Positions 3,690-63,500 of a stretch of DNA of 64,000 bases are shown here, one piece after another. Source of the DNA: Mobula hypostoma (lineage: Eukaryota). Location: contig NC_086097.1 of the NCBI RefSeq assembly GCF_963921235.1, forward strand, positions 20,276,001 through 20,340,000, read 5' to 3'. How positions within the stretch are numbered: the stretch's first letter is position 1; every line of letters begins with the position of its first letter. The notes under the pieces are model-generated. The model was given only the letters and a program-made list of their open reading frames with translations. It had not been told where the DNA came from and did no database searches. Position numbers and translations under genes: made by a program.

Positions 3690-4405
3690 CAGAATCAGGT
3701 TTTATTATCACCAGCATGTAATGTGGAATTTGGTAACTTAGCAGCAGCAGTTCAATGCAATACATAATCTAGCAGAGAAAAAACAAAATAATATAAAAAA
3801 ATAAAGTAAATCAATTACATACAGTATATTGAATAGATTTTTTAAAGTACAAAAACAGAAATACTGTATTTTTTTTTAAAGTGAGGTAGAGTCCAAAGGT
3901 TCAATGTCCATTTAGGAATCGGATGGCAGAGAGGAAGAAGCTATTCCTGAATCGCTGAGTGTGTGCCTTCAGGCTTCTGTACCTCCTACCTGATGGTAAC
4001 AGTGAGAAAAGGGCATGCCCTTGATGCTGGAGGATGCTGCCTTTCTGAGACACCACTCCCTGAAGATGGCCTGGGTACGTTGCAGGCTAGTAGCCAAGGT
4101 GGAGCTGACTAAATTTACAACCTTCTGCAGCTTCTTTCGGTCCTGTGCAGTCGCCCCTCCATACCAGACAGTGATACAGCCTGTCAGAATGTTCTCCACA
4201 ATACAACTATAGATGTTTTTGAGTCTATTTGTTGACATGTCAAATCTCTTCAAGCTCCTAATAAAGTATAGCCACTGTCTTGCTTTCTTCATAACTACGT
4301 CGATATGTTGGGACCAGGTTAGATCCTCAGAGATCTTGACGCTGCTCACTCTCTCCACTTCTGATCCCTCTGAGGATTGGCATGTGTTCCTTCATCTTAC
4401 CCTCC
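3690..4405 (-). mobile_element. Rex1/Babar-like LINE 3' fragment
   Basis: Encodes ISEDLTWSQHID...KKARQWLYFIRSLKRF...ILTGCITVWYG. Its 3' UTR is shared with a copy at about 272-775. Confidence 0.7.
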
Positions 4406-4684: not shown

Positions 4685-5422
4685 GACAAGTTAGCATCGG
4701 GGCCACGGGAGGCAGACAAGTGGGTCACGGTTAGGAGGGGGAAGGGGAAAAGGAAGGTGATGGGGAGTACCCCGGCGGCTGTGCCCCTTAACAACAGGTA
4801 CTCCTGTTTGAGTACTGTTGGGGGGGACAGCTTACCCGGGGGAAGCGACAGTGGCCCTGCCTCCGGCACAGAGTCTGGCCCTGTAGCTCAGAAGGGTAGG
4901 GCAAGGAAGAGGAGGGCAGTTGTGATAGGGGACTCGATAGTAAGGGGGTCAGATAGGCGATTCTGTGGACGCAGTCCAGAGACTCGGATGGTAGTTTGCC
5001 TCCCTGGTGCCAGGGTCCGGGATATTTCTGATCGTGTCCAAGATATCCTGAAGTGGGAGGGTGAAGAGCCAGAGGTCCTGGTACATATAGGTACCAATGA
5101 CATAGGTAGGAAAAGGGATGAGGTCCTGAAAGAAGAATATAGGGAGCTAGGAAGGGAGTTGAGAAAAAGGACCGCAAAGGTAGTAATCTCGGGATTACTG
5201 CCTGTGCCACGCGACAGTGAGAGTAGGAATGCGATGAGGTGGAGGATAAATGCGTGGCTGAGGGATTGGAGCAGGGGGCAGGGATTCAAGTTTTTGGATC
5301 ATTGGGACCTCTTTTGGCGCAGGTGTGACCTGTACAAAAAGGACGGGTTACACTTAAATCCTCGGGGGACCAATATCCTGGCAGGGAGATTAGCGGGGGC
5401 TACTGAGGTGACTTTAAACTAG
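4685..5422 (+). CDS. CR1 ORF1 C-terminal part, SGNH/GDSL esterase-like domain
   Basis: Motifs VVIGDSIVRG, CLPGARV, VHIGTND and DGLHLN. Frame open from 4685 to TAG at 5420-5422. Confidence 0.88.
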   Translation, partial: DKLASGPREADKWVTVRRGKGKRKVMGSTPAAVPLNNRYSCLSTVGGDSLPGGSDSGPASGTESGPVAQKGRARKRRAVVIGDSIVRGSDRRFCGRSPETRMVVCLPGARVRDISDRVQDILKWEGEEPEVLVHIGTNDIGRKRDEVLKEEYRELGRELRKRTAKVVISGLLPVPRDSESRNAMRWRINAWLRDWSRGQGFKFLDHWDLFWRRCDLYKKDGLHLNPRGTNILAGRLAGATEVTLN

Positions 5423-8400
5423 AATGGTTGGGGGGTGGGAATCAAATTAAAGCGGCTAGGTGTGAGGAGGTTAGTTCACAACAGAGGGATGGGAACCAGT
5501 GCAGAGAGACAGAGGGGTGTAAAGTGAGCGTAGAAGCAAAAAGTACAAAGGGGAAAAGTAAAAGTGGCAGGCCGACAAATCCAGGGCAAGCATTAAAAAG
5601 GGCTAAGAGAGTTGTAAAAGAGTGCCTGAAGGCTTTATGTGTCAATGCAAGGAGCATTCGTAATAAGGTGGATGAATTGAAAGTGCAGATTGTTATTAAT
5701 GATTATGATATAGTTGGGATCACAGAGACATGGCTCCAGGGTGACCAGGGATGGGAGCTCAACGTTCAGGGATATTCAATATTCAGGAGGGATAGACACG
5801 AAGGAAGGGGAGGTGGGGTGGCGTTGCTGGTTAAAAAAGAGATTAACGCAATAGAAAGGAAGGACATAAGCCGGGAAGATGTGGAATCGATATGGGTAGA
5901 GCTGCGTAACACTAAGGGGCAGAAGACGCTGGTGGGAGTTGTGTACAGGCCACCTAACAGTAGTAGTGAGGTCGGAGATGGTATTAAACAGGAAATTAGA
6001 AATGTGTGCAATAAAGGAACAGCAGTTATAATGGGTGACTTCAATCTACATGTAGACTGGGTGAACCAAATTGGTAAAGGTGCTGAGGAAGAGGATTTCT
6101 TGGAATGTATGCGGGATGGTTTTTTGAACCAACATGTCGAGGAACCGACTAGAGAGCAGGCTATTCTGGACTGGGTTTTGAGCAATGAGGAAGGGTTAAT
6201 TAGCGATCTTGTCGTGAGAGGCCCCTTGGGTAAGAGTGACCATAATATGGTGGAATTCTTCATTAACATGGAGAGTGACGTAGTTAATTCAGAAACAAAG
6301 GTTCTGAACTTAAAGAGGGGTAACTTTGAAGGTATGAGACATGAATTAGCTAAGATAGACTGGCAAATGACACTTCAAGGATTGACGGTGGATATGCAAT
6401 GGCAGGCATTTAAAGGTTGCATGGATGAACTACAACAATTGTTCATCCCAGTTTGGCAAAAGAATAAATCAAGGAAGGTAGTGCACCCGTGGCTGACAAG
6501 AGAAATTAGGGATAGCATCAATTCCAAAGAAGTAGCATACAAATTAGCCAGAGAAAGTGGCTCACCTGAGGACTGGGAGAAATTCAGAGTTCAGCAGAGG
6601 AGGACAAAGGGCTTAATTAGGAAGGGGAAAAAAGATTATGAGAGAAAACTGGCAGAGAACATAAAAACGGACTGTAAAAGCTTTTATAGATATGTAAAAA
6701 GGAAAAGACTGATAAAGACAAATGTAGGTCCCCTGCAAACAGAAACAGGTGAATTGATTATGGGGAGCAAGGACATGGCAGACCAATTGAATAATTACTT
6801 TGGTTCTGTCTTCACTAAGGAGGACATAAATAATCTTCCAGAAATAGTAAGGGACAGAGGGTCCAGTGAGATGGAGGAACTGAGCGAAATACATGTTAGT
6901 AGGGAAGTGGTGTTAGGTAAATTGAAGGGATTGAAGGCAGATAAATCCCCAGGGCCAGATGGTCTGCATCCCAGAGTGCTTAAGGAAGTGGCCCAAGAAA
7001 TAGTGGATGCATTAGTGATAATTTTTCAAAACTCGTTAGATTCTGGACTAGTTCCTGAGGATTGGAGGGTGGCTAATGTAACCCCACTTTTTAAAAAAGG
7101 AGGGAGAGAGAAACCGGGGAATTATAGGCCGGTTAGCCTAACGTCGGTGGTGGGGAAACTGCTGGAGTCAGTTATCAAGGATGTGATAACAGCACATTTG
7201 GAAAGCGGTGAAATGATCGGACAAAGTCAGCATGGATTTGTGAAAGGAAAATCATGTCTGACGAATCTCATAGAATTTTTTGAGGATGTAACTAGTAGAG
7301 TGGATAGGGGAGAACCAGTGGATGTGGTATATTTGGATTTTCAAAAGGCTTTTGACAAGGTCCCACATAGGAGATTAGTGTGCAAACTTAAAGCACACGG
7401 TATTGGGGGTAAGGTATTGGTGTGGGTGGAGAATTGGTTAGCAGACAGGAAGCAAAGAGTGGGAATAAACGGGACCTTTTCAGAATGGCAGGCGGTGACT
7501 AGTGGGGTACCGCAAGGCTCAGTGCTGGGACCCCAGTTGTTTACAATATATATTAATGACTTGGATGAGGGAATTAAATGCAGCATCTCCAAGTTTGCGG
7601 ATGACACAAAGCTGGGTGGCAGTGTTAGCAGTGAGGAGGATGCTAAGAGGATGCAGGGTGACTTGGATAGGTTGGGTGAGTGGGCAAACTCATGGCAGAT
7701 GCAATTTAATGTGGATAAATGTGAAGTTATCCACTTTGGTGGCAAAAATAGGAAAACAGATTATTATCTGAATGGTGGCCGATTAGGAAAAGGGGAGGTG
7801 CAACGAGACCTGGGTGTCATTGTACACCAGTCATTGAAAGTGGGCATGCAGGTACAGCAGGCGGTGAAAAAGGCGAACGGTATGCTGGCATTTATAGCGA
7901 GAGGATTCGAGTACAGGAGCAGGGAGGTACTACTGCAGTTGTACAAGGCCTTGGTGAGACCACACCTGGAGTATTGTGTGCAGTTTTGGTCCCCTAATCT
8001 GAGGAAAGACATCTTTGCCATAGAGGGAGTACAAAGAAGGTTCACCAGATTGATTCCTGGGATGGCAGGTCTTTCATATGAAGAAAGACTGGATGAACTG
8101 GGCTTGTACTCGTTGGAATTTAGAAGATTGAGGGGGGATCTGATTGAAACGTATAAGATCCTAAAGGGATTGGACAGGCTAGATGCAGGAAGATTGTTCC
8201 CGATGTTGGGGAGGTCTAGAACGAGGGGTCACAGTTTGAGGATAGAGGGGAAGCCTTTTAGGACCGAGGTTAGGAAAAACTTCTTCACACAGAGAGTGGT
8301 GAATCTGTGGAATTCTCTGCCACAGCAAACTGTTGAGGCCAGTTCATTAGCTATGTTTAAAAGGAAGTTAGATATGGCCCTTGTGGCTACAGGGGTCAGG

Positions 8401-8427
8401 GGGTATGGAGGGAAGGCTGGGTTCTGA
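5407..8427 (+). CDS. CR1 ORF2, uninterrupted AP endonuclease plus reverse transcriptase
   Basis: APE motifs NARSI, ITETWL, GDFN and SDH; RT motifs YRPVSLTS, LDFQKAFD, GVPQGSVLGP and FADD. No internal stops. First in-frame ATG is only at 6031. Confidence 0.95.
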   Translation, partial: GDFKLEWLGGGNQIKAARCEEVSSQQRDGNQCRETEGCKVSVEAKSTKGKSKSGRPTNPGQALKRAKRVVKECLKALCVNARSIRNKVDELKVQIVINDYDIVGITETWLQGDQGWELNVQGYSIFRRDRHEGRGGGVALLVKKEINAIERKDISREDVESIWVELRNTKGQKTLVGVVYRPPNSSSEVGDGIKQEIRNVCNKGTAVIMGDFNLHVDWVNQIGKGAEEEDFLECMRDGFLNQHVEEPTREQAILDWVLSNEEGLISDLVVRGPLGKSDHNMVEFFINMESDVVNSETKVLNLKRGNFEGMRHELAKIDWQMTLQGLTVDMQWQAFKGCMDELQQLFIPVWQKNKSRKVVHPWLTREIRDSINSKEVAYKLARESGSPEDWEKFRVQQRRTKGLIRKGKKDYERKLAENIKTDCKSFYRYVKRKRLIKTNVGPLQTETGELIMGSKDMADQLNNYFGSVFTKEDINNLPEIVRDRGSSEMEELSEIHVSREVVLGKLKGLKADKSPGPDGLHPRVLKEVAQEIVDALVIIFQNSLDSGLVPEDWRVANVTPLFKKGGREKPGNYRPVSLTSVVGKLLESVIKDVITAHLESGEMIGQSQHGFVKGKSCLTNLIEFFEDVTSRVDRGEPVDVVYLDFQKAFDKVPHRRLVCKLKAHGIGGKVLVWVENWLADRKQRVGINGTFSEWQAVTSGVPQGSVLGPQLFTIYINDLDEGIKCSISKFADDTKLGGSVSSEEDAKRMQGDLDRLGEWANSWQMQFNVDKCEVIHFGGKNRKTDYYLNGGRLGKGEVQRDLGVIVHQSLKVGMQVQQAVKKANGMLAFIARGFEYRSREVLLQLYKALVRPHLEYCVQFWSPNLRKDIFAIEGVQRRFTRLIPGMAGLSYEERLDELGLYSLEFRRLRGDLIETYKILKGLDRLDAGRLFPMLGRSRTRGHSLRIEGKPFRTEVRKNFFTQRVVNLWNSLPQQTVEASSLAMFKRKLDMALVATGVRGYGGKAGF

Positions 8428-8632
8428 GTTGGATGATCAGCCATGATCATAATAAATGGCGGTGCAGGCTCGAAGGGCCGAATGGCCTACTCCTGCACCT
8501 ATTTTCTATGTTTCTATGTTTCTATGAATACAATTAGTCTAACACTGAAATACTTCTGGCAAGGATCTCTTAATTATTATGAAGGTCCAATCAAGAACCA
8601 AGGCAACCAATTTCTGTTTTGTTCTACTGCAG

Positions 8633-28750: not shown

Positions 28751-28934
28751 CTGTAAATAAACCAGGTCAAGACATCAGCTTTGAGATGCAACTCATCACA
28801 TTTTAGTGGCAGTGTTGCCCAATAAGTGTTGAAATTAAGACAACCACGTGTGATTTTTACATCAAATATCACAGGAGTGAAATATTCTCGAGATAAGCAA
28901 AAGAGAAGAAACAGCCTACAAAGAATATGGACAT

Positions 28935-29580
28935 GGTAATGCTTGACAAAAGAGGGATTGAATTCAAGAGCAGGGAGGTCATGCTGCAACTATACAGGGT
29001 ACTGGTGAGGCCGCACCTGGAGTACTGTGTGCAGTTCTGGTCTCCATACTTGAGGAAGGATATACTGGCTTTGGAGGCAGTGCCGTGGAGGTTCACCAGG
29101 TTGATTCCAGGGATGAAGGGGTTAACCTATGAGGAGAGATTGATTCGCCTGTGACTATACTCTCTAGAGTTCAGAAGAATGAGAGGGGATCTTATAGAAA
29201 TGTACAAAATTTTGAAAGGGATAGATAAGATAGAAGTAGGAAAGTTGTTTCCATCGGTAGGTGAGACTAGAAGTAGATGACATTGCCTCAAGATTCAGGG
29301 GAGAAGATTTAGGACAGAGATGAGGAGAAACTGTTTTTCCCAGAGAGTGGTGAATCTGTGGAATTCTCTGCCCAGGGAAGCAGTTGAGGCTTCTTCACTA
29401 AATAATATTTAAGAAACAGTTAGATAGGTTTTTACATAGTAAGGGAATTAGGGGTTATGGGGAAAAGGCAGGTAGTTGGAGCTGAATTTATGGGCAGATT
29501 AGCCATAATCTTATTGAATGGCAGGGCAGGGTCGATGGGCCGGATGGCCTACTCCTGCTCCTATTTCTTCTTATATTCTA
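28935..29580 (+). mobile_element. CR1 3' fragment; similar fragments at about 1105-2160, 19400-20100, 23460-23730, 26050-26720, 42200-42545, 45590-46020, 49910-50930, 58500-58860, 61115-61660 and 61790-62370
   Basis: LVRPHLEYCVQFWSP motif and CR1 3' UTR (gggcc..atggcctactcctgctcct). Confidence 0.8.
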
Positions 29581-30918: not shown

Positions 30919-33900
30919 AGTCATAGTCATACTTTATTGATCCCAGGGGGGAAATTGGTTTTCGTTACAGTTGCACCATAAATAATAAATAATCATAGAA
31001 CCATAAATAGTTAAATAGTAATATGTAAATTATGCCAGTAAATTATGAAATAAGTCCAGGACCAGCCTATCGGCACAGGGTGTCTGACCCTCCAAGGGAG
31101 GAGTTGTGAAGTTTGATGGCCACAGGCAGGAATCACATCCTTTGATGCTCTGTGCTGCATCTTGGAGGAATGAGTCTCTGGCTGAATGTGCTCCTGTGCC
31201 CACCCAGTACATTACATAGTGGATGGGAGACATTGACCAAGATGGCATGCAACTTGGACAGCATCCTCTTTTCAAACACCACCGTGAGAGAGTCCAGTTC
31301 CATCCCCACAACATCACTGGCCTTACGAATAAGTTTGTTGATTCTGTTGGTGTCTGCTACCCTCAGCCTGCTGCCCCAGCACACAACAGCAAACATGAAT
31401 GCCTACAGGATGGCTTTTTGGAGCAACTTGTCCAGAAGCCCACCAGGGGACCGGCTGTTTTGGATTGGGTGCTGTGTAACGAACCTGAGGCGATTAGGGA
31501 GCTGGAGGTAAAGGAACCGCTTGGAAGTAGTGATCATAATATGATTGAGTTCAGTTTCAAATTTGAAAAGGAGAAGCTGGTATTAGGTGTATCGATATTT
31601 CAGTAGAACAGGGGAAATTACATTTGTATGAGAGAGGAACTGGCCCAAGTCAATTGGAAAAGTAAACTAAATGGAGGGACGGCAGAGCAGAATTGGATGA
31701 AATTCCTACAAGAAATAAGGAAAATGCAGGAAAAATATATTCCAAGAAAAAAGAAAATCATGAATGGAAAAATGGCACAAATGTGGCTAACGAGAGAGGT
31801 TAAGGCAAAAATAAAAGCAAAAAAAACGGCGTACAAGGAAGCAAAAATTAGTGGGAAAAATGAGGACTGGAAGACCTTTAAAAACTTACAGAAAGAAACT
31901 AAGAAAGTCATTAGGAAAGAAAAGATGAATTATGAAAGGAAGTTGGCGATTAACATAAAAAAAGGATACTAAGAGTTTTTTTTAAATATATGAAGAGTAA
32001 AAGAGTGACAAGGGTAGATATGGGACCGATTGAAAATGATGCTGGAGTAATTATAATGGATAACAAAGAGATGGCGGAGGAACTGAATGAGTATTTTGCA
32101 TCAGTCTTCACAGTGGAAGACATGAGCAATATACCTGATAGCCAGAGGTATCAGGGAATAGAATTAGGTACAGTCAAGATAACTAGAGAGAAAGTGCTTG
32201 GGAAGCTAAGTGGACTAAGAATAGATAAGTCTCCCGGCCCGGATGAGGTGCACCCAAGGTTTCTGAAGGAGGTGGCTTTGGAGATTGTGGAAGCATTGGA
32301 AATGATCTTCCAGGAATCAATAGACTCTGGCATGGTTCCGGAGGACTGGAAGGTCGCAAATGTAGTTCCGTTATTTAAGAAAGGAAGGAGGCAGCAAAAA
32401 GAAATTTACAGACCTATTAGTCTGACATTAGTAGTTGGAAAGATATTGGAGTCAATCCTCAAGGATGAGGTTATGAAATACCTCGAGGTGCATGACAAGA
32501 TAGGCCGAAGCCAGCATGGTTTCATGAAGGGAAGATCCTGCCTTACCAACTTATTGGAATTTTTTGAGGTAATCTCGAATAAGATTGACAAGGGAGAGGC
32601 TGTGGATGTTGTGTATTTGGATTTTCAAAAGGCCTTCGATAAGGTGCCGCATATGAGGCTGCTTAATAAGATGAGAGCCCATGGAATTATAGGAAAGATA
32701 TTGAAATGGGTGGAGCATTGGCTGATAGGCAGAAAGCAAAGGGTGGGACTAAAGGGATCCTATTCTGATTGGTTGCCGGTTACTAGTGGTGTTCCACAGG
32801 GGTCGGTGTTGGGGCCGCTTCTTTTTACGCTGTATATCGATGATTTGGATTATGGATTAAATGGTTTTGTGGCCAAGTTTGCGGATGACACCAAGATAGG
32901 TGGAGGAGCAGGAAATGTTGAAGAAACGGAAAGGTTGCAGAGAGACTTAGTCAGTTTAGGAGAGTAGGCAAAGAAATGGCAGATGAGATACAATGTTGAC
33001 AAATGTACGGTTGTACATTTCGGAAGAAGAAATAATCGGGCAGGTTATTATTTAGATGGGGAGAAAATTCAAAAATCGGAAGTGCAGAAGGACTTGGGGG
33101 TCCTCGTGCAGGATACCCTAAAGGTTAACCACCAAGTTGGATTGGCGGTAAGGAAAGCGAATGCTATGTTGGCATTCATTTCAAGAGGAATAGTGTATAA
33201 GAGTAAGGAGGTGTTGATGAGGCTCTATGGGGCATTAGCGAGACCTCATTTGGAATACTGTGTGCAGTTTTGGGCCCCCTATCTTTGAAAGGATATACTG
33301 ATGTTGGAGAGAGTTCAGAGAAGATTTACAAGGATGATTCCTGGAATGCAGGGGCTAACATATGAGGAGCGTCTGTCGGCTCTTGGATTGTATCCATTAG
33401 AGTACAGAAGAATGAGAGGGGATCTCATAGAAACATTTCGAATGTTGAAAGGGTTGTACAGAGTAGATGTGGAAAGGTTGTTTCCCTTGGTGGGTGAGTC
33501 CAGGACAAGAGGCCATAGTCTTAGAATTAGAGGGTACCCAGTTAAAACAGAGATGAGGAGAAATTTTTTTAGCCAGAGGGTCATGGATTTGTGGAATTCG
33601 TTGCCACATATGGCTGTGGAGGCCCGATCATTGAGGGTGTTTAAGGAGGATATTGACAGGTATCTAATTAGTCAGGGTATCAAGGGATATGGGGAAAAAG
33701 CCGGAAATTGGAACTAGATGGGTGAATAGTTTAGCTCATGGGGGAGCTGCGGAGCAGACTCAATGGGCCGAATGGCCTACTTCTGCTCCTTTGTCTTGTC
33801 TTGTGATGATAGCACTGGCCACCACAGACCCGTAGAACATCCTCAGCATCCTCTGGCAGATGTTAAAGGACCTCAGTCTCCTCAGGAAGTAGAGACGGCT

Positions 33901-44880: not shown

Positions 44881-47533
44881 GTTGCCCCAGATTCTGGGAT
44901 CTGCAGTCTCTTGTGCCTGTTTCCCTCCGGGGATGCAGCCTGACCCGCTGGGTTCCTCCAGCAGCATGTGCGTGGTTCAGGGTTTCCAACATCTGATTAA
45001 GGGTCTCGTCCCGAAACGTCGACTCGTTATTTCTCTCCACCGATTCTGCCTGGCCCACTGAGTTACCCTGAGTTTAGCATTTGGTTTGTTCCGCATTTAA
45101 GCAACCTGTGGTCACTTGTGTTTCCCTGAAAGAAGTGGCGTTTCATTAGTAAGTTCACTTAAGTCGATTTTTTAACATTCTATCCGAGCTGTTTAAGAGT
45201 AATTCGCTTTTATACGAACACATGAGATTCTGCTGCTGCTGAGAAAGCTGAGCGACACCCACAAAATGCTGGAAGAACTTTGTGGTCAGCCGGCATCCGT
45301 GGAGGGGAATTAACAGTCGACATTTCAAACTGGGATGCTTCATCAGGACTGGAAGGAAAGGAGGGGGGACGGGGGCAGAAGCAGAATTCTTATATAATTC
45401 CTTGAATGATCCCTGCAGTTTCTGGTTAGAAAATAACCGGAAAAGTTCCAAGCCCGTGACGTGTAAAGACTATTTCTAAAATGGATTGAAGGGATGTGGA
45501 AATATTTGCTTGCCTGTTTAGCAGATTTGGAACAATAGTTGACCAGCATCTGTTGGAGGGAAGAAGGGGGTTGCCATTATTTTAGACCACAAGACATGGC
45601 AGCAGAATTAAGCCATTCAGCCCTTCCAGTCTACTCTACCATTCCATCAAGCCTGATTTATTATCCCTCTTAACCCCGTTCTCCTGCCTTCTCCCCATAA
45701 CCTTTGGAGCCCTTATTAATCAGGAGCCTACCAACCTCCACTATAAATATAACCAATAACTTGGCCTCCACAGCCATCTGTGACAACAAATTCCATAGAT
45801 TCACCACCCTCTGGCTAAAGAAATTTCTCCTCACCTCTGTTCCAAAGGGGCACCCTTCTAGTCTGAGGCTGTACCCCCTGGTCCTAGAGCCCACCCCCCC
45901 CTGTAGAAAATATGTTCTCCACATCCACTCTATCTGGGTCTCTCACTATTTAATAGGCTTCAATGAGCTCCCCCTCATTCTTCTAAACTTCTGCGAGTAC
46001 AGGCCGAGAGCCATCGAACCAGGATGTGCCTTCTTCTAATTACTACCACCAGGGAGGTGGTACAGGAGTCTTTAGATACTTCAGGAACAGCTTCTCCCTG
46101 TCTGCCAACAGATGTCTGAATGGTCAATGAACACTATCTCACAATGCCGGCTCTTTTTTACCTTACTTACTTTACACCAAACAACAAGTCTCATCAGATA
46201 TGTCGATGATCATAAAGATGGTTCAGACTCTGTGTAGTTCATGGATTACAGATGCCACTGGTAAAACTGAAAGTGATTGCCCGTCCCTGTTTGTTCCTGG
46301 GAAGCTGCCTTCTTGAAACTTTGCCATTCACATGGTGAAGGCACTTGTCCCATGATCAATACAAGGGGATTCTGCAGATGCGGGAAAATCAGGGCAACAC
46401 GGAGGAAATGCTGGAGGAACTCAGCAGGTCAGGCAGCATCTGTGGAGAGGAATAAACGGTCAAAAGTTTTGGGCTGAGACCCTTTGCTACATCGATGGTA
46501 CGGAAAGAGCTGCAGAATTTTCACTTGCCCAAAGTGAAGGCAAATATATTTCCCAGCTAGAGATGCATGTGTCTTTTTCAATTATACGTGTCACCCAGCT
46601 GGCAGATGGTGTCGAGGAAGCCTGAGCGTGGTACTGCCGTGTGATGGCACGCAGTGCAATTACTCGGTTGTCAATGTGATTTAAGTGGAGTTGAGGCCCC
46701 ATTTTCAGATCTTGATCCTATTTTCTGGGTACTTGAGCTTGGTATCATTCTAGAACCTGTTGGTGTGGGACGGGGGTCCTTGATGATGGATGTTGCTTTC
46801 CTGTGGCAACGCACCTTGTCGATATGCTCAATGGTGGGGAGGGCTTTTCCCGTGATGGACTGGACCGTACCCATCATTTTCTGCAGTACTTTTCTGTTCC
46901 TGGGCATTGGTGCTACCATACCAGGCCAGGATACTCTCCACTGTGCATCGGTAGAAGTTTAACAAAGTTTTTGGTGACATACTGAATTTCACAAAATTCG
47001 AAAACTAAGTTCTTTATTTCTACCCAACCCATCTGTTCCAGAGAGAAGATGATCTAGTATCCAGGGAAATAAATTAATTAGGGTCCAATATATGCACAGG
47101 CAAAATGAAAAACATATTTGCAGCAGCATCACAGGGACATAGGACCAATACATAACTCTCACAAGAAATATATAAATTATACACGACATTTACAATTTAA
47201 AAAATGTCGCTACAGAGGAGACCTTGTGAGTTGCTTAATTACCCTGGACAAGAAAATAGGAGTTGCATTTATATTTTAAAAATCACAATATGAAAGCAAT
47301 TTACATCCAAATATATATATACCCACTGCTGACAAGTAGGAGACACAAGTAGTAGTTCTTGCGGGAGCCCCACAGACAGATATCAATGTGGGAATGGCAG
47401 GTTCCAAGACAAAAAAAAACTGCAGACTCTGGAAATCCAAAGCAACACACACAAGATACTGGAGGAACTCTGCAGGCCAAGCAGCATCTATGGAAAAGAG
47501 TAAACAGTCAACGTTTCGGGCCAAGACCTTTCA

Positions 47534-49753: not shown

Positions 49754-51919
49754 TGGCCCGAAACATCAACTGTTTATTCTTTTCCATAGATGCTGCCTGG
49801 CCTGTCTGTTGCAATGGCAGGTTCCTCCGTTCCATCTTGGGTGGTGAGTGTTCTTAATGATGGATGCTGCCAGAATATTGAGGAGAATTCCCTTGTTTGC
49901 ATAAAACCCATAAGACGTAGGAGCAGAATTAAATCGTTTGGCCCATTGAGTCTGCGCCTTTCTTCCCTTCCTCAGCCCCAATCTCTGGCCTTCTCCCCAT
50001 AACCTTTGATGCCATGTCCAATCAAGAACCCATCAAGCTCTGCCTTAAATACACCCAACGACCTGGCCTCCACAGCTGCCTGTGGTAATAAATTTCACAA
50101 ATTCTCCATCCTCTGGCTAAAGAAATTTCGCTGCATCTCTGTTTTAAATGGACACCCCTTTATCCCGAGGCTGTGCCCTCTTGTCATAGACTCTCCCACC
50201 ATGGGACACATCCTTTCCACATACATTCTGTCTAGGCCTTTCAACATTCGAAAGGTTTCAATGCGATACCCCTCATCCTTCTAAATTCCAGCAAGTACAG
50301 ATGCAGAGCTATCAAATGTTCTTCGTATGATAACCCTTTCATTCACAGAATCATCCTTGTGAACCTCCTCTGAACATTCTCCAATGCCAGCACATCTTTT
50401 CATAGATGAGGAGCCCAAAACTGTCCACAATACTCAAGGTGAGGCCTCACCAGTGTCTTATAAAACCTCAGCATCACATCCCTGCTCTTGTATTCTAGAC
50501 CTCTTGAAATGAACGCTAACATTGCATTTACCTTCCTCACCTGCAAGTTAACCTTCAGGGTGTTCTGCACAAGGACTCCCAAGCCCTTTTGCATCTCAGG
50601 TTTTTGGATTTTCTCCCCATTTGGAAAATAGTCTGCATGTTTATATCTTCTACCAATGTGCATGACATTGTAACATTTTCCAACATTGTATTTCATTTAC
50701 CACCTTCTTGCCCATTCTCCTAATCTGTCTAAGTCCTTCTGCAGCCTTCCTGTTTTGTCAATGCTACCTGCCCCTCCACCAATCTTCATATCATCTGCAA
50801 ACTTGGCAACAAAGCCATCTGTTCCATCATCTAAATCATTGATATACAGCAGAAAAAGAAGCAGTTGCACACCTACCCCTGCAGAACACCACGAGTCACT
50901 GGCAGCCAACCAGAAAAGGATCCTTTTATTCTGACATTTTGCTTCAATTTGCAAGGAAAGCAGGCCCTTGGTTCACAATCTCACTAGGTCAGCAGGAACT
51001 CTGACAATGTATCACTTTCTCAGGACCATACAAGAATTTCTCATTGAATTTGGTGCTTAAAGCCCAAAAACAGGATTTGAGCTTGGAACCTTCTGGCTCA
51101 GGGGCAAGAGAGCCATCTATTGAGACCAGCTGCCGCACACTTATGGTCGGGATAGGCATGTTAATTTTTCGGTATGAGGTACCAGAAGGTATTGAAGCCA
51201 ACAAGACAAATCCATTTTCTCACTTCAACCCCCCTTCCCCCATCATCCTACTTTCCCTTTCACCTGGCTTCACCTATCACCTGCCAGCAGTTTGTACTCC
51301 TTCCCCATCCTCACCACTTTCTTATTCTGTTTTCCTCCCCCTTCCTTCCCAGTCCTGATGAAGAGTCCGGCTCAAAACGTTGACTCTTTATTCCACTCCA
51401 TGGATGCTACCTGACTGACTTGGTTTCTCCAGCGTTTTGTGTGTGTTGCTCTGGAATTCCAGCATCTGTAGAATCTTTTGTGCTTGCAAATCAGAGGAAA
51501 TACTCAGAAATTCTTGTAGCACCAGAGTAGAAATAGAAACGGAGGTTTCATACACAATCATCCTTCCTCAGAACTGCGTGAATTTAGAGGTGAAACATAT
51601 TTTAGGCTGCTGAGGAAGTGGTGGGGCATCGAGATCAGAAGGGAAGAGTGAGGAGGAGAGACTGAATTGACCACCCGTGGTAGGGTTGCCAGCTGAAAGA
51701 GTGGTTGTGTCTATCTGGAGCAATTGAAAATAGGAAGAAGTGAATGAAATATTAGAGGAGATAAGGCTAACAAATGGAGGAATTATGAGATTAGAATCAT
51801 TTTCTGTATTGTTGTATATGGTGCTGAGACTTGAGGAAGTGTGAGGTGTCCATTCTGAGGTTAAGGTGCTGCTTTTCGACTTGGCTTTGAGGTTTGTAGA
51901 GGCCAAAATAACTGAACCT

Positions 51920-58296: not shown

Positions 58297-59059
58297 AACA
58301 CAACTCCTTACTCATTAACAGAACTTAAATTCCACACTGGCTGTGATGGGAATTGAACTTATGTCTCTGGATTATCTGGTGTTCTCATCTGCAATCCATT
58401 TCAATTCTGCTCCCCGTTCACACACTGACCTGGCCGCCCTCAGCCTCTTCCACTGCCAGGCTGGACAGGACCAGCACCTCATCTCCTGCCTGATTGGGTC
58501 TACAACACTGAAAGCCCTCGATAGAGTGGATGTGGAAAGGATGTTTCCTCTAGTGGGGAGAGTCTAGGACCAGAGGGCACAGCCTCAGAATAGAAGGATC
58601 TCCCTTTAGAACAGAGATGAGGAGAAATTTCCTTAACCAGAGGGTGGTGAATCAGTGGAATTCACCGCCACAGATGGGTGTGGAGTCCAAGTCATTGGTG
58701 TATTTAAAACAGATGTTGATAAGTACTTGATGAGTCAGGGCATCAAAGGCTACGGGGAAAAGGCAGAGAATGGGGATGAGAGGGATAATAAATCAGCCAT
58801 GATGGATGGTGAAGAAAAACTCAATAGATCAAATCCTGCTCCTGCATCTTATCGTCTTGCGTTCTTAACCTGACAGCATAAAGTTGAATTCTCCAGTTTC
58901 AGTTAACCGGCTTCCCCTCTGTCCTTTTCCCTCTCCTGCAGATCTACCCAGTTCCTCCTGCACGCTATGAGACCCCATCACCCAGTTTCTCTCCCCACCA
59001 TCACTCTTTCTAAATGCCCACCTGATCTCCCTCATCTGGTTCCACGCTTTCCACTTGTG

Positions 59060-60561: not shown

Positions 60562-63500
60562 CTCCAACCCAGGACTGGCCCTCCATTATGCCCTCAACAG
60601 TCTACTTACGCAGCTGAAGGAACTAGCCTCTCAGCACCCACCCTGTCAATCCCCTCAGGAACTTAGAAAGCACTTCTTTGTAAATTCCTAGTATCACTCT
60701 TTGCAGGAGAATCTTCTAATCTCAGGAATCAATCTAGGAAATCCGCACTGGACTGAATCCAAGGCCAGTACATCCTTCCTCACAGACAAGATAAAGATTA
60801 AAAACTGCACAGAGTGCTCTAGAATGATGTTTCAAACCCTATCTAATCTCTTCTCGCCAGATGTGGCTACTTTTGCAGTTCTGTCACCCCCCAAAAAAAC
60901 ATAAAAAAACAACATGGACATTGAAATGGCAGGAGAAGCTCCAAAGGAATTGGGACTCAGTTCCAAATGAAGCAGAAACACTGTAGAAAAGTAGCATTTG
61001 TGTTTCACTATTGTGGTAATTTGCAATGATCACAGGTCATATTCATTTCTGCCTGTTGTGGTGAGGGGTCAGGAGGAAGAGCAGCTAAGGGTAATAATTA
61101 CTATTGGAATACAGAGGTATTGTCAGCAGTTTTGGGCCCCATATCTCAGAAAGGATGTATTGTCATTGGAGAGAGTCCAGAGGAGGTTCATGAGGATGAT
61201 TCTGGAACCAAAGGGGTGTATGAGGAGCATTTGGGATCTTTGGGCCCGTACTCACTGGAGTTTAGAAGAATGCGTGGAGATCTCATTGAAACCTACTGAA
61301 TGTTGAAAGGACTAGATAAGGTGGACATGGAGAGGATGTTTCCTCTGGTGGGAATGTCCAGAACTAGAGGGCACAGCCTCAACATTGACCTTTTAGAACA
61401 GAAATAAGAAGGAATGCTTTTAGCCATAGAGTGGTGGATCTGTGGAATGCTCTGCCATAGACTGCGGTGGAGGCCAAGTTACTGGGTATATACAAAGTGG
61501 AAGTTGATAGGTTCCTGAATGGTCGGGGCATCAAAGGATATGGCAAGAAGGCGGATGTATGGGATTGAATGGAGTCTGGGATCAGCCATAATGGAATGGT
61601 GGAGTGGACATGATGGGGTAAATGGCTTAATTCTGCTTCTATGTCTTATGGTCTTATTATTTTTCTTTGAGACATAGACGTTGCTGCCTCACAGCTCCAG
61701 CAGGTAGAAACCCAACCTCAGGGTTGCTTTTGGGGAGTCTGCATGTTTGCTCTGTGACAGAACCTGGAACACAGGATGGGCCGACATTTTAAACTACTCC
61801 AAGATCATTCTTCCCCCTTCTTCCTACACAGCCCTCCATTTCTCTTTCACCCATGTGTCTGTCTCATAGTTTCTCAAATGTCCCTAATGTAATCTGGCTC
61901 TACCACCACCCCCGGCAACATGTTCTATGTTCTCACCACTTTTTTGTGTAAAAAAGCATACTTTTGACATCCTCGCTATACTTTCCTCCAATTGCTTTAA
62001 AATTATGCCCCCCCAGATTATATCCACTCGATCTATGCCTCTTATTATCTTGTACATCTTTATAAGTCAACTCTCATCCTCCTTTGCTCCAGAGAAAAAG
62101 CCCTCACTTGCTTACCTATCCTCATTAGACATGCTCTCTAATCCGGGCAACATCCTGGTAAATCACCTCTGCACCCTCTCTAAAGCTTCCACATCCTTCC
62201 TATGATGAAGTGACCAGAACTGAACTCAGTATTCCGAGTGTGGTCTAACCAGCTTTTGTTAGAGGTGGAGCATTACCTTGTGGGTCTTGAACTCAATCCC
62301 CTGTCTAATGAAGGCCAGTACACCATTCGCCTTCTTAACCGCCCTATCAACTTTCACAATCATGTGGGCTTCCTCGAGTTTCCCACCACACCTGAAAAAT
62401 GCGCAGTTTCCTCTGCTATTTTGCCCAGCGATAATTGGCCCTGTGTCTAAGTGGGTGGCAGAGGCTGGCTGGAGCAGTTGGGGAATGTAGTTCACGGAGA
62501 AAATTAGTGGAGAATAGGATTAATTGGTGAGCTGGCATGGATGATTACCCAAAATGGCCTCACTCTATACTGTAAGGAAATTATAATTATGTATATGGAT
62601 ATATTTAAAGCTGAGATTGTTAGGTTCTTGATTAGTAAGGGAGTCAAAAGTTATGGGGAGAAGTCAGGAGAATGGGGCTGAGAGGGATAATAAATCAGCT
62701 ATGATAGAATGGTAAAGCAGACTTGATGGGGTGAATGGCTTAATTATGCTCCCCTGTCTTCTGGTCTTATTTTAGAGTAGGTTAAAGGTCAACACAACAT
62801 CACGGGCTGAAGGGCTGTAATGTTCTATGGGAATTAAATCACATTGGTGAAGTGTTTTATCTCAGTACCTCCTGCATTTTTGACCTACATCCATTGCTAC
62901 TTTGGAGTTAATTGCTCCAACTCAGGAATGCAATTGGATTCTTTGGTTTGCAGAATCAGGGATCTTCAAAAAGGCGATGCCTCAGAAAGGTGACTCCATC
63001 ATTAAGGACACCCATCTACCAGGACATGCCCCCTCCTCATTGCTACCATCAAGGAGGAGGTACAGGAGCCAGAAGATACACACTGAACATTTCAGCAGTA
63101 ACTTCTTCCCCTCTGCCACCAGATCTATGAATGGGCATTGAACCCATGAACACCTTTTCCTCACTTTTTGCACCAATTATTTATATATATTTCTTATTGT
63201 AATTTATAATTTATTATGTATTACAATGTACTGCTGCTGCTAATCAACACATTTCAAGACAAATGCCGGTGATATTAAACCTGATTCTAATTCTGAAGAA
63301 AGAGATGAGTCTATGATAAAGTGAGCAAACAGAAGGCCCAGGGATGGCTGAGGAGGTCACAACCCCAAGAAAGGGGTCGTGTGTGAGGGAAACCAGAGAC
63401 CACAGGAACAGACGGAATGGAGGCCTGGAACCTTGGGATTGGGCAAAATGGGAGCCAAAGACCGCAGGAGCTGGAATGCTCAGACAGCTTGGTCCCTTGC

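Follow-up and report, generated by a model that had tools for sequence, protein, structure and literature searches.

Among the closest described systems, the retroviral gag-pol junction (RSV) and the coronavirus ORF1a/1b junction (IBV, U_UUA_AAC) share with the CR1 junction described here the class of slippery heptamer, its phase and a short overlap of the two frames (PMC5009743, in the sections available). According to the same sections, frameshifting in PRRSV nsp2 is trans-activated by nsp1beta and a poly(C)-binding protein, with CCCANCUCC placed '11 nucleotides 3'' (PMC5009743). A non-LTR precedent for -1 frameshifting is provided by the Dictyostelium elements TRE5-A and TRE3-A, both of the APE-RT type, which are said in the accessible part of one source to need the shift for ORF2 (PMC5911963). 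In two-ORF Penelope-like elements, ORF1 can be set apart by a frameshift with a pseudoknot (PMC8557442, available part), and some Penelope-like elements carry the same esterase as CR1 (PMC3905857). SART1, with its UAAUG stop-start, and mammalian L1, which reinitiates, have a bicistronic LINE RNA and need low expression of ORF2, as in CR1. According to the available parts of two sources, it is unclear how LINE RNAs with two genes give rise to ORF2 protein, and the tested cases use reinitiation (PMC5972666, PMC3708506).

In the chicken genome, CR1 ranks first among repeats in abundance (11.8%). CR1 subgroup 7 of Metcalfe and Casane, with a type IVB ORF1 (zinc finger/leucine zipper plus esterase), shares with the element studied here the esterase ORF1, the APE-RT ORF2 and vertebrate hosts; neither 'frameshift' nor 'overlap' occurs in the available part of that paper (PMC4120745). 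No earlier report of a CR1 frameshift was found in the literature searched, the founding CR1 papers lying outside that search.

The element and its two reading frames

The window, a stretch of 64,000 nucleotides from Mobula hypostoma, contains a young, 5'-truncated CR1 copy, an esterase-type LINE on the forward strand. Its ORF1 (4700 to 5422) begins at about 4700, where the match to the full-length homologue P0001 starts, ends in Thr-Leu-Asn-stop and shares 99% identity with a Mobula hypostoma protein of 311 aa. The N-terminal Cys finger, which P0001 shows as two CxxC pairs, is lost in the window copy. The SGNH/GDSL esterase domain lies at about 4922-5368 (PF13472, E=1.6e-16), with a profile match to the ZfL2-1 ORF1 esterase 4c1b (E=1.5e-45), and a tree of esterases places this ORF1 with named shark, frog, turtle, lizard and bird proteins (95/93). 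As the copy is truncated inside ORF1, the signal at the end of this frame is counted as a trait of the CR1 family, and its activity in the window copy is only predicted.

CR1 LINEs end in a 3' hairpin and short 8-bp terminal repeats, without poly(A). Both features are present at 8461-8526 on the forward strand, where an 8-bp inverted repeat (8461-8468 / 8492-8499) and three TTTCTATG repeats can be read from the sequence, and which we take to be a CR1-type 3' end. No clear target-site duplication was found around the element. Elsewhere in the window, CR1 is represented by 3' fragments that lack the junction.

ORF2 is open in the -1 frame from 5407, as had been noted earlier, and runs uninterrupted from stop to stop over 1006 codons (5407-8427). 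It encodes an APE endonuclease (5644 to 6243; PF03372, E=3e-12; PF14529 was also found) followed by a reverse transcriptase (7102 to 7755; PF00078, E=1.1e-33). Its first in-frame AUG is codon 209, at 6031, and indeed falls inside the endonuclease (IMGDFN), behind the motifs NARS, TETW and YRPP. Between ORF1 and the endonuclease, a linker of about 75 codons (5419 to 5643) contains no stop and no Met in the -1 frame; it is open in 1.6% of dinucleotide shuffles, and the other two frames hold 5 and 7 stops. Some contigs of the four sequencing runs that were compared carry an in-frame form of the linker that is 27 nt longer, at 5597. The 2A/StopGo element of CR1/L2 ORF2 is marked by a DxExNPGP motif ahead of the endonuclease; no such motif was found in the window linker, where an NPG precedes Gln and lacks the Asp/Glu.

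Conservation of the junction

The ORF1 frame reads GTG ACT TTA AAC TAG, which places the heptamer T5413-TTA-AAC5419 (5413 to 5419) in exact X_XXY_YYZ phase, with the stop codon (5420 to 5422) adjoining its 3' side. The junction was compared at the DNA level in 13 loci, the window and 12 relatives, which span ray, bird-type and a deeper sister clade and include no amphibians, turtles or lizards; 22 loci had been assigned by hand to the group ending in Leu-Asn (LN), and 10 that end before the junction were not counted. TTTAAAC is in phase in 11 of the 13, from ray to bird-type and the deeper sister clade, and is followed by TAG in eight junctions and by TGA in two, the remaining three being decayed copies. 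The signals of L010, L012 and L022 are decayed. No relatives of the element were found among viral contigs or in the genome contigs collection, and the supplements of PMC7140322 contain no junction sequences.

That this layout arose by chance in one decayed copy, or that UAG is read through in frame 0 (type III: UAG plus a purine-rich tract), is jointly a very remote prospect, and both appear largely refuted by the sequences compared. TTTAAAC does occur 14 times in the window on both strands, but a stop follows only the junction copy, as does GGGGG 10 nt later; the layout recurs in lineages whose esterases are only 29-36% identical, and there is no junction indel among the variants listed for contigs of the four runs. 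The same check, covering 40 of 48 variants, lists none at 5397-5452. The UAG and the purine-rich stretch behind it resemble type III readthrough motifs (PMC3542737, in its available part), but in the window a ribosome in frame 0 would meet 5 stops ahead of the endonuclease, and ORF2 lies in -1.

The codon before TTA AAC varies (Thr, Ala, Cys, Tyr, His) and always ends in T in the 11 junctions. In the four bird-type elements tested, TTA encodes only 4-8% of leucines, and free synonymous choice would yield the T/TTA/AAC combination with a probability of 0.007-0.075 per element (7 elements tested). At the protein level, 81 of 84 homologous ORF1 tails, from sharks to birds, end in Leu-Asn-stop (17/17 clusters at 60% identity), among them tails of named sharks, rays, coelacanth, frogs, turtles, lizards, snake and bird; the search profile was made from LN-ending proteins and is hence biased toward them. 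The residue before LN is one without a possible NNT codon (K/Q/E/M/W) in 1/55 cases, vs 32/110 at the two preceding positions (p=7e-6), a test weakened by the fact that positions -6, -7, -9 and -10 are likewise poor in these residues. Among 104 tails of representatives at 50% identity, 10 end in GN (9 QGN, 1 SGN) and 3 in KN (SKN, SKN, AKN). These tails of distant clusters would fit G_GGA_AAC and A_AAA_AAC, heptamers read back from protein only, which together with U_UUA_AAC are three of the four named most shift-prone (PMC5009743, available sections).

The conserved bases might instead serve the protein, as a C-terminal Leu-Asn for the esterase, or act at the DNA level only, with ORF2 translated from a spliced or internally started RNA; we consider this quite improbable. 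LN does sit at the end of the last predicted ORF1 helix, for which reason some protein-level constraint on it may exist, although model confidence falls at these last residues (pLDDT 66). An amino-acid requirement, however, does not account for TTA, AAC and the preceding T being fixed though synonymous codons dominate elsewhere, and the heptamer appears to be conserved beyond amino-acid need. With regard to splicing, TAG-G resembles a 3' splice site and gene predictors splice into the junction region in stork copies, but the TGA of L015 and L028 leaves no acceptor, and no joint at the junction is among those listed for the putative RNA run X10 (contigs only, hence weak). An RNA started internally would first meet the AUG at 6031 and lose the N-terminal endonuclease motifs.

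All 6 linkers scored have a -1 frame without stops as far as the endonuclease. L028, left out of the scores for a motif mis-hit at codon 10, also reads open to the endonuclease, and L015 has stops in its -1 linker. Three database proteins, P0121 and P0122 (Hypanus) and P0400, run in one frame from the esterase through FKLxxxG into the endonuclease, which confirms the -1 register. The linkers of the window, L003 and L005 contain no Met. The expectation that no in-frame AUG precedes the endonuclease holds in part: among the variants listed, only one contig of one other organism has such an AUG, but bird-type linkers do carry them (L001 at 4, 16 and 58; L002 at 4, 11 and 28; L009 at 22 and 24). 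In most stork copies a Met precedes the endonuclease by 13 residues, and P0121, P0122 and P0400 have a linker Met as well. Since these linkers contain in-frame Met, AUG initiation is possible in those lineages.

Such starts bear on termination-reinitiation in the style of SART1 or L1, in which ribosomes would terminate at the ORF1 UAG and begin again close by, on an AUG or a near-cognate codon (TTG 5428, ATT 5446, GTG 5524, CTG 5626 in the window) to make a separate ORF2p, the conserved bases being a reinitiation signal. This is the mechanism described for tested LINEs, many relatives have a linker Met, and in L001 and L002 an in-frame AUG lies 2 nt behind the stop; reinitiation could coexist with frameshifting in birds. 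But no start is conserved: an in-frame AUG adjoins the ORF1 stop in only 2 of 13 junctions, the ATG codon of L001 and L002 is TGG, TCG, GTG, GAC or GAA elsewhere, and the adjacent AUG of the window, at 5424, is out of frame and yields only the 8-codon peptide MVGGWESN that had been predicted for it. Reinitiation also leaves the canonical heptamer in exact phase and the GN and KN alternatives unexplained, and as the general mode of ORF2 translation it is judged improbable.

The G5 motif and the proposed slip

The stop is followed by a 7-nt spacer (5423 to 5429) that includes the AUG at 5424; its columns, +4 to +10, vary in sequence, and all 11 junctions long enough to include it keep the same length. 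The G-rich tract reported earlier does begin 7 nt downstream of the heptamer, at 5426 (+7), but the conserved part can be narrowed to a G5 motif at 5430-5434 (+11 to +15), a candidate 3' stimulator that the window copy extends as G6 plus GGG to 5439. GGGGG stands exactly 10 nt behind the heptamer in 10 of the 11 junctions long enough, the decayed L012 having AGGGG. All five proteins in which the esterase continues into the -1 frame have Gly at position 7 of FKLxxxG.

No stimulatory fold was found behind the site in four window stretches (z = 0.27, -0.34, -0.36 and 1.21), nor across 11 junctions, the window and 10 relatives (z -1.55 to +1.41, near 0), with folding that excludes pseudoknots. Over the 90 nt that follow the window site there is no C-run with which the G-run could pair. 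More distant partners for the G-run were considered and dismissed: in a comparison of raw energies, the strongest one in the window (-20.0 kcal/mol) belongs to the element's own 3' hairpin, as one of its arms, and is scarcely better than an upstream site (-19.2), and in five other loci the top-scoring partners fall at unrelated positions, one of them about 700 nt past the ORF2 end. An intramolecular G-quadruplex is unlikely as a general stimulator, since L003 and L005 hold only one G6 run.

Programmed -1 frameshifting that yields an esterase-endonuclease-RT fusion, in gag-pol fashion, is very probably the mode of ORF2 expression in this CR1 family. This reading, put forward in the earlier note, is supported: the computational checks that might have overturned it were run and none did. 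The same slip most likely takes place in bird relatives and probably in frog and reptile relatives, to judge from their sequences. Most ribosomes would terminate at UAG, and ORF1p (about 311 aa) would be released; in a minority, the tRNA-Leu and tRNA-Asn paired with UUA and AAC would slip back to UUU and AAA, and reading would resume at CUA. This would give a fusion of esterase, linker, endonuclease and RT, about 1,310 aa long (311 + 1002), in which ...EVTLN is followed by LEWLGGG... The pause would probably come from the adjacent stop codon and the G5 at its fixed 10-nt distance, rather than from local RNA structure. What the sequences show is the geometry, its conservation, an open linker free of AUG and the lack of a predicted fold; the slip, with its rate, the parts played by G5 and the stop, and any later cleavage of the fusion are inferred.

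If the fusion is made, the mode of RT production would be explained for a very common vertebrate jumping-gene family. The CR1 ORF2 protein would have been drawn with the wrong N-terminus, as ORF1p with its esterase would stand in front, and the ratio of ORF1p to fusion would be set by a 22-nt signal.

Outgroup junctions and known recoding systems

In outgroup esterase LINEs, ORF2 lies in frame behind UGA-C in 27 of 33 loci, and the endonuclease motif, where found, is in frame 0 with no further stop (18/18); 25 of the 58 outgroup loci are outside the count, as the motif was not found, the contig ended or the tail fell outside 24-46 aa. UGA-C is a readthrough context, and by its sequence this would be a second recoding route to the same ORF1-ORF2 fusion, which would parallel the frameshift-versus-readthrough split among retroviruses. 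A broader proposal, possible but doubtful, is that a protein, either a host G-tract-binding protein or ORF1p, binds G5 and activates the CR1 shift, and that esterase LINEs all recode ORF1-ORF2 fusions, by -1 heptamers or by UGA-C readthrough. U_UUA_AAC, G_GGA_AAC and A_AAA_AAC would then be interchangeable in vertebrate CR1s and the deeper sister clade, and a protein-activated frameshift would be conserved from rays to birds, with the RT tethered to a membrane-binding esterase particle.

Metcalfe and Casane describe esterase ORF1s as exclusively vertebrate (PMC4120745, available part), whereas distant esterase LINEs appear among the sequences collected here. The Dictyostelium TRE elements differ from CR1 in being other elements with another ORF1, and Penelope-like elements in their GIY-YIG endonuclease class and pseudoknot stimulator. 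SART1 and L1 make a separate ORF2p by termination-reinitiation, according to the available parts of their descriptions, whereas CR1 would make a fusion. What CR1 has in common with the arterivirus PRRSV is a short homopolymer-rich stretch, free of structure, placed at constant spacing behind the shift site: the CR1 G5 starts at +11, and a short motif at the arterivirus-type spacing of about 10 nt is present in 10 of 11 junctions. This likeness is positional only, as the CR1 motif is G-rich rather than C-rich and has no known activator. In retroviruses and coronaviruses the polymerase is an extension of the upstream protein (PMC5009743, available sections), as it would be in CR1. Unlike these viruses, CR1 is a non-LTR retrotransposon with its stop directly adjacent to the heptamer, and its junctions have no predicted stem-loop or pseudoknot, the stable structure expected 5-9 nt 3' of the heptamer at sites of the coronavirus and retrovirus type. 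Because the CR1 signal lacks the usual RNA structure and carries a G5 at fixed spacing, it may define a new kind of stimulator.

The ORF1/ORF2 junction in the window

The CR1-type LINE occupies about 4700-8526 on the plus strand. Its ORF1, an SGNH esterase (PF13472) truncated at the 5' end, is 99% identical to a 311-aa protein of Mobula hypostoma, which makes the host a ray or a near relative and the family young. ORF1 ends in GTG ACT TTA AAC TAG, which places the heptamer U_UUA_AAC (5413-5419) in slippery phase immediately 5' of the stop, as the earlier note had claimed. The other claims on the reading frames also hold. ORF2, recognized from domain matches (APE endonuclease and reverse transcriptase) and the ORF listing, is open in the -1 frame for 1006 codons; its first in-frame AUG, at 6031, is codon 209 and lies within the endonuclease; and the AUG at 5424 is out of frame and yields a peptide of eight codons. 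Of the 14 TTTAAAC sites in the window, only the one at the ORF1 end is followed directly by a stop, or by GGGGG (G5) ten bases on. Just upstream of this copy, 3969-4391 on the minus strand contains 140 codons without a stop and resembles the C-terminal portion of an ORF2 from another LINE. Related CR1s have also left older 3' fragments (31397-33790, 28921-29566, 49987-50945, 45682-46008, 61117-61553 and 58508-58718), which show 50-70% amino-acid identity; none reaches the junction.

Variation within the family was surveyed with contigs from four public runs aligned to 5250-5750 at 80% likeness, one of which (X1, 12,424 records aligned) may be the window's own source; these contigs are silent on expression or translation. 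Among the 40 of 48 variant positions listed, no variant and no indel falls in 5397-5452, and the loose contig ends of more distant subfamilies likewise continue into TTTAAA. Some contigs carry 27 extra nucleotides at 5597, in frame and starting with the same letters that follow, and the window copy has probably lost these bases between short repeats. Among these listed positions, the sole in-frame linker ATG is an AAG-to-ATG change at 5549 in a single contig of organism C.

Conservation of the heptamer among relatives

At least 80 loci were found in the metagenome scan, and 22 among those listed were assigned by hand to the LN group, in which ORF1 ends Leu-Asn-stop; 12 of the 22 reach the junction and, with the window, form a set of 13. 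TTTAAAC is present in 11 of these 13 junctions and is followed directly by a stop in 10 of the 11 (TAG in 8, TGA in 2), bearing out the conservation of heptamer and phase that the earlier note had put up for checking. The junction is decayed in L010, L012 and L022. The codon preceding TTA varies (Thr, Ala, Cys, Tyr, His), its third base being always T. TTA makes up only 4-8% of Leu codons in four scored bird-type elements, and if codons were chosen freely, the combination of NNT, TTA and AAC would have a probability of 0.007-0.075 per element. Seven variable bases follow the stop; of the 11 junctions that are long enough, 10 then have G5 at +11 to +15. G5 could reflect the need for a Gly in the fusion protein, yet all 11 use GGG for it, preceded by G in 10. 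In the esterase tree the window groups with named shark, ray, coelacanth, frog, turtle, lizard, snake and bird proteins and the bird-type loci (95/93), while L003, L005 and L010 form a separate clade (99/94) that is weakly joined to this group.

ORF1 tails could be scored in 84 of 120 homologues (24-33 residues behind the DGLH motif), and LN is the C-terminal end in 81 of 84 and in 17 of 17 clusters at 60% identity. Codons for K, Q, E, M and W cannot end in T; one of these residues directly precedes LN in 2 of 81 tails, whereas they account for 108 of the 567 residues at positions -4 to -10 (p=3e-5), some hydrophobic helix positions being just as poor in them. Gln never precedes LN in the scored tails. 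A profile biased toward LN gave the 150 best representatives at 50% identity; 104 of them have a scorable tail, which ends in LN in 55, in GN in 10 and in KN in 3. The GN tails are nine QGN and one SGN (P0285, P0286, P0292, P0301, P0302, P0309, P0320, P0329, P0345, P0359) and the KN tails two SKN and one AKN (P0304, P0369, P0371). Judged from protein, such ends would fit the requirement of G_GGA_AAC and A_AAA_AAC slippery sites, two heptamers that PMC5009743 counts, like U_UUA_AAC, among those most prone to shifting. Several others carry KN or FF and then a few extra residues. In the predicted esterase fold the terminal helix includes LN, and confidence falls there (pLDDT 66 in the last block). 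SH3 domains occur in the homologues P0126 and P0128. Four esterase-LINE proteins, P0019, P0135, P0075 and P0247, are filed under Pseudomonas aeruginosa, Carnobacterium, Protopolystoma and Cooperia, and are probably foreign DNA within those assemblies.

The linker and the outgroup junctions

The -1-frame linker between the ORF1 stop and the endonuclease is without a stop in 6 of 6 scored elements (36-87 codons), as it is in 0.4-34% of shuffles (window, 1.6%); L015 has stops in it. Met is absent from the linkers of the window, L003 and L005, and present in those of the bird-type loci L001, L002 and L009. Reinitiation of translation for ORF2 is the main rival explanation, most of all in birds, which have in-frame AUGs, and could operate together with frameshifting. 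Stork gene models, which are biased toward open frames, read FKLD(S/L)K and then mostly Gly, with an open linker of 94-97 residues and a Met usually 13 residues ahead of the endonuclease. In five database proteins the esterase is followed without a break by the -1 frame, always with FKLxxxG, and three of them (P0121 and P0122 from Hypanus, and P0400) reach the endonuclease; they presumably come from copies with an upstream frame change. P0122 (Hypanus sabinus), an in-frame CR1 ORF1-ORF2 fusion, is misannotated as 'hydroxyacid oxidase 2 isoform X1'. An NPG tripeptide (NPGQ) at 5575-5590 in the window linker does not match the 2A consensus; some CR1/L2 elements carry 2A sequences in this region.

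Outside the LN group, 58 loci are found among the matches listed. Their ORF1 stop, scorable in 33, is TGA in 30 and TGA-C in 27 (for example L044:1152, L067:1186, L080:4207), counts that are not independent, since a single related clade (16 rows, 100/99) takes in many of the loci. These outgroup esterase LINEs include L006, L008, L026 and L029-L080. With all three frames checked separately, the endonuclease motif, where found behind the stop, is in frame 0 with no intervening stop in 18 of 18, and L042 has lost the stop, its frame continuing into ORF2. UGA-C is a type II readthrough context (PMC3542737). These junctions are candidates for stop-codon readthrough, a second recoding route, and are regarded as a lead because most of the linkers contain Met at varying positions.

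Proposed mechanism and known recoding systems

Tandem tRNA slippage at the heptamer would yield an ORF1-ORF2 fusion of about 1,310 aa, along with free ORF1p made in excess. Such slippage is the simplest account of the exact heptamer, its fixed phase, the swaps among canonical heptamers and the open linker without AUG. On these comparative grounds, the -1 frameshift and gag-pol-like fusion proposed in the earlier note appear very probable. Behind the site, folding z-scores are near zero in the window and relatives, and long-range pairing finds no support in the window and other loci; the stimulator differs from the usual RNA structure.

ORF2 translation has been termed 'not clear' (PMC3708506). 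Full-text searches, with passages covered from PMC5972666, PMC4120745, PMC3905857, PMC8557442, PMC4700185, PMC4255032, PMC11835228, PMC6609765 and 10.1101/788562, brought up no account of frameshifting or readthrough at a CR1 ORF1/ORF2 junction. The supplements of PMC7140322 contain no junction sequences; those of other papers could. Novelty is claimed within this range, because the original CR1 papers and Repbase Reports, which lie outside it, may already describe the overlap or propose a frameshift. 'CR1' is absent from the 300,000 characters of text covered in PMC5009743.

Among other retrotransposons, TRE5-A and TRE3-A depend on a -1 frameshift (PMC5911963). In pea enation mosaic virus a stop adjoining the shift site helps shifting, and in PRRSV a protein complex binds a C-rich motif that lies 11 nt 3' of the shift site (PMC5009743). 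The CR1 G5, which starts at +11, is alike in position to this motif and may be comparable to it.
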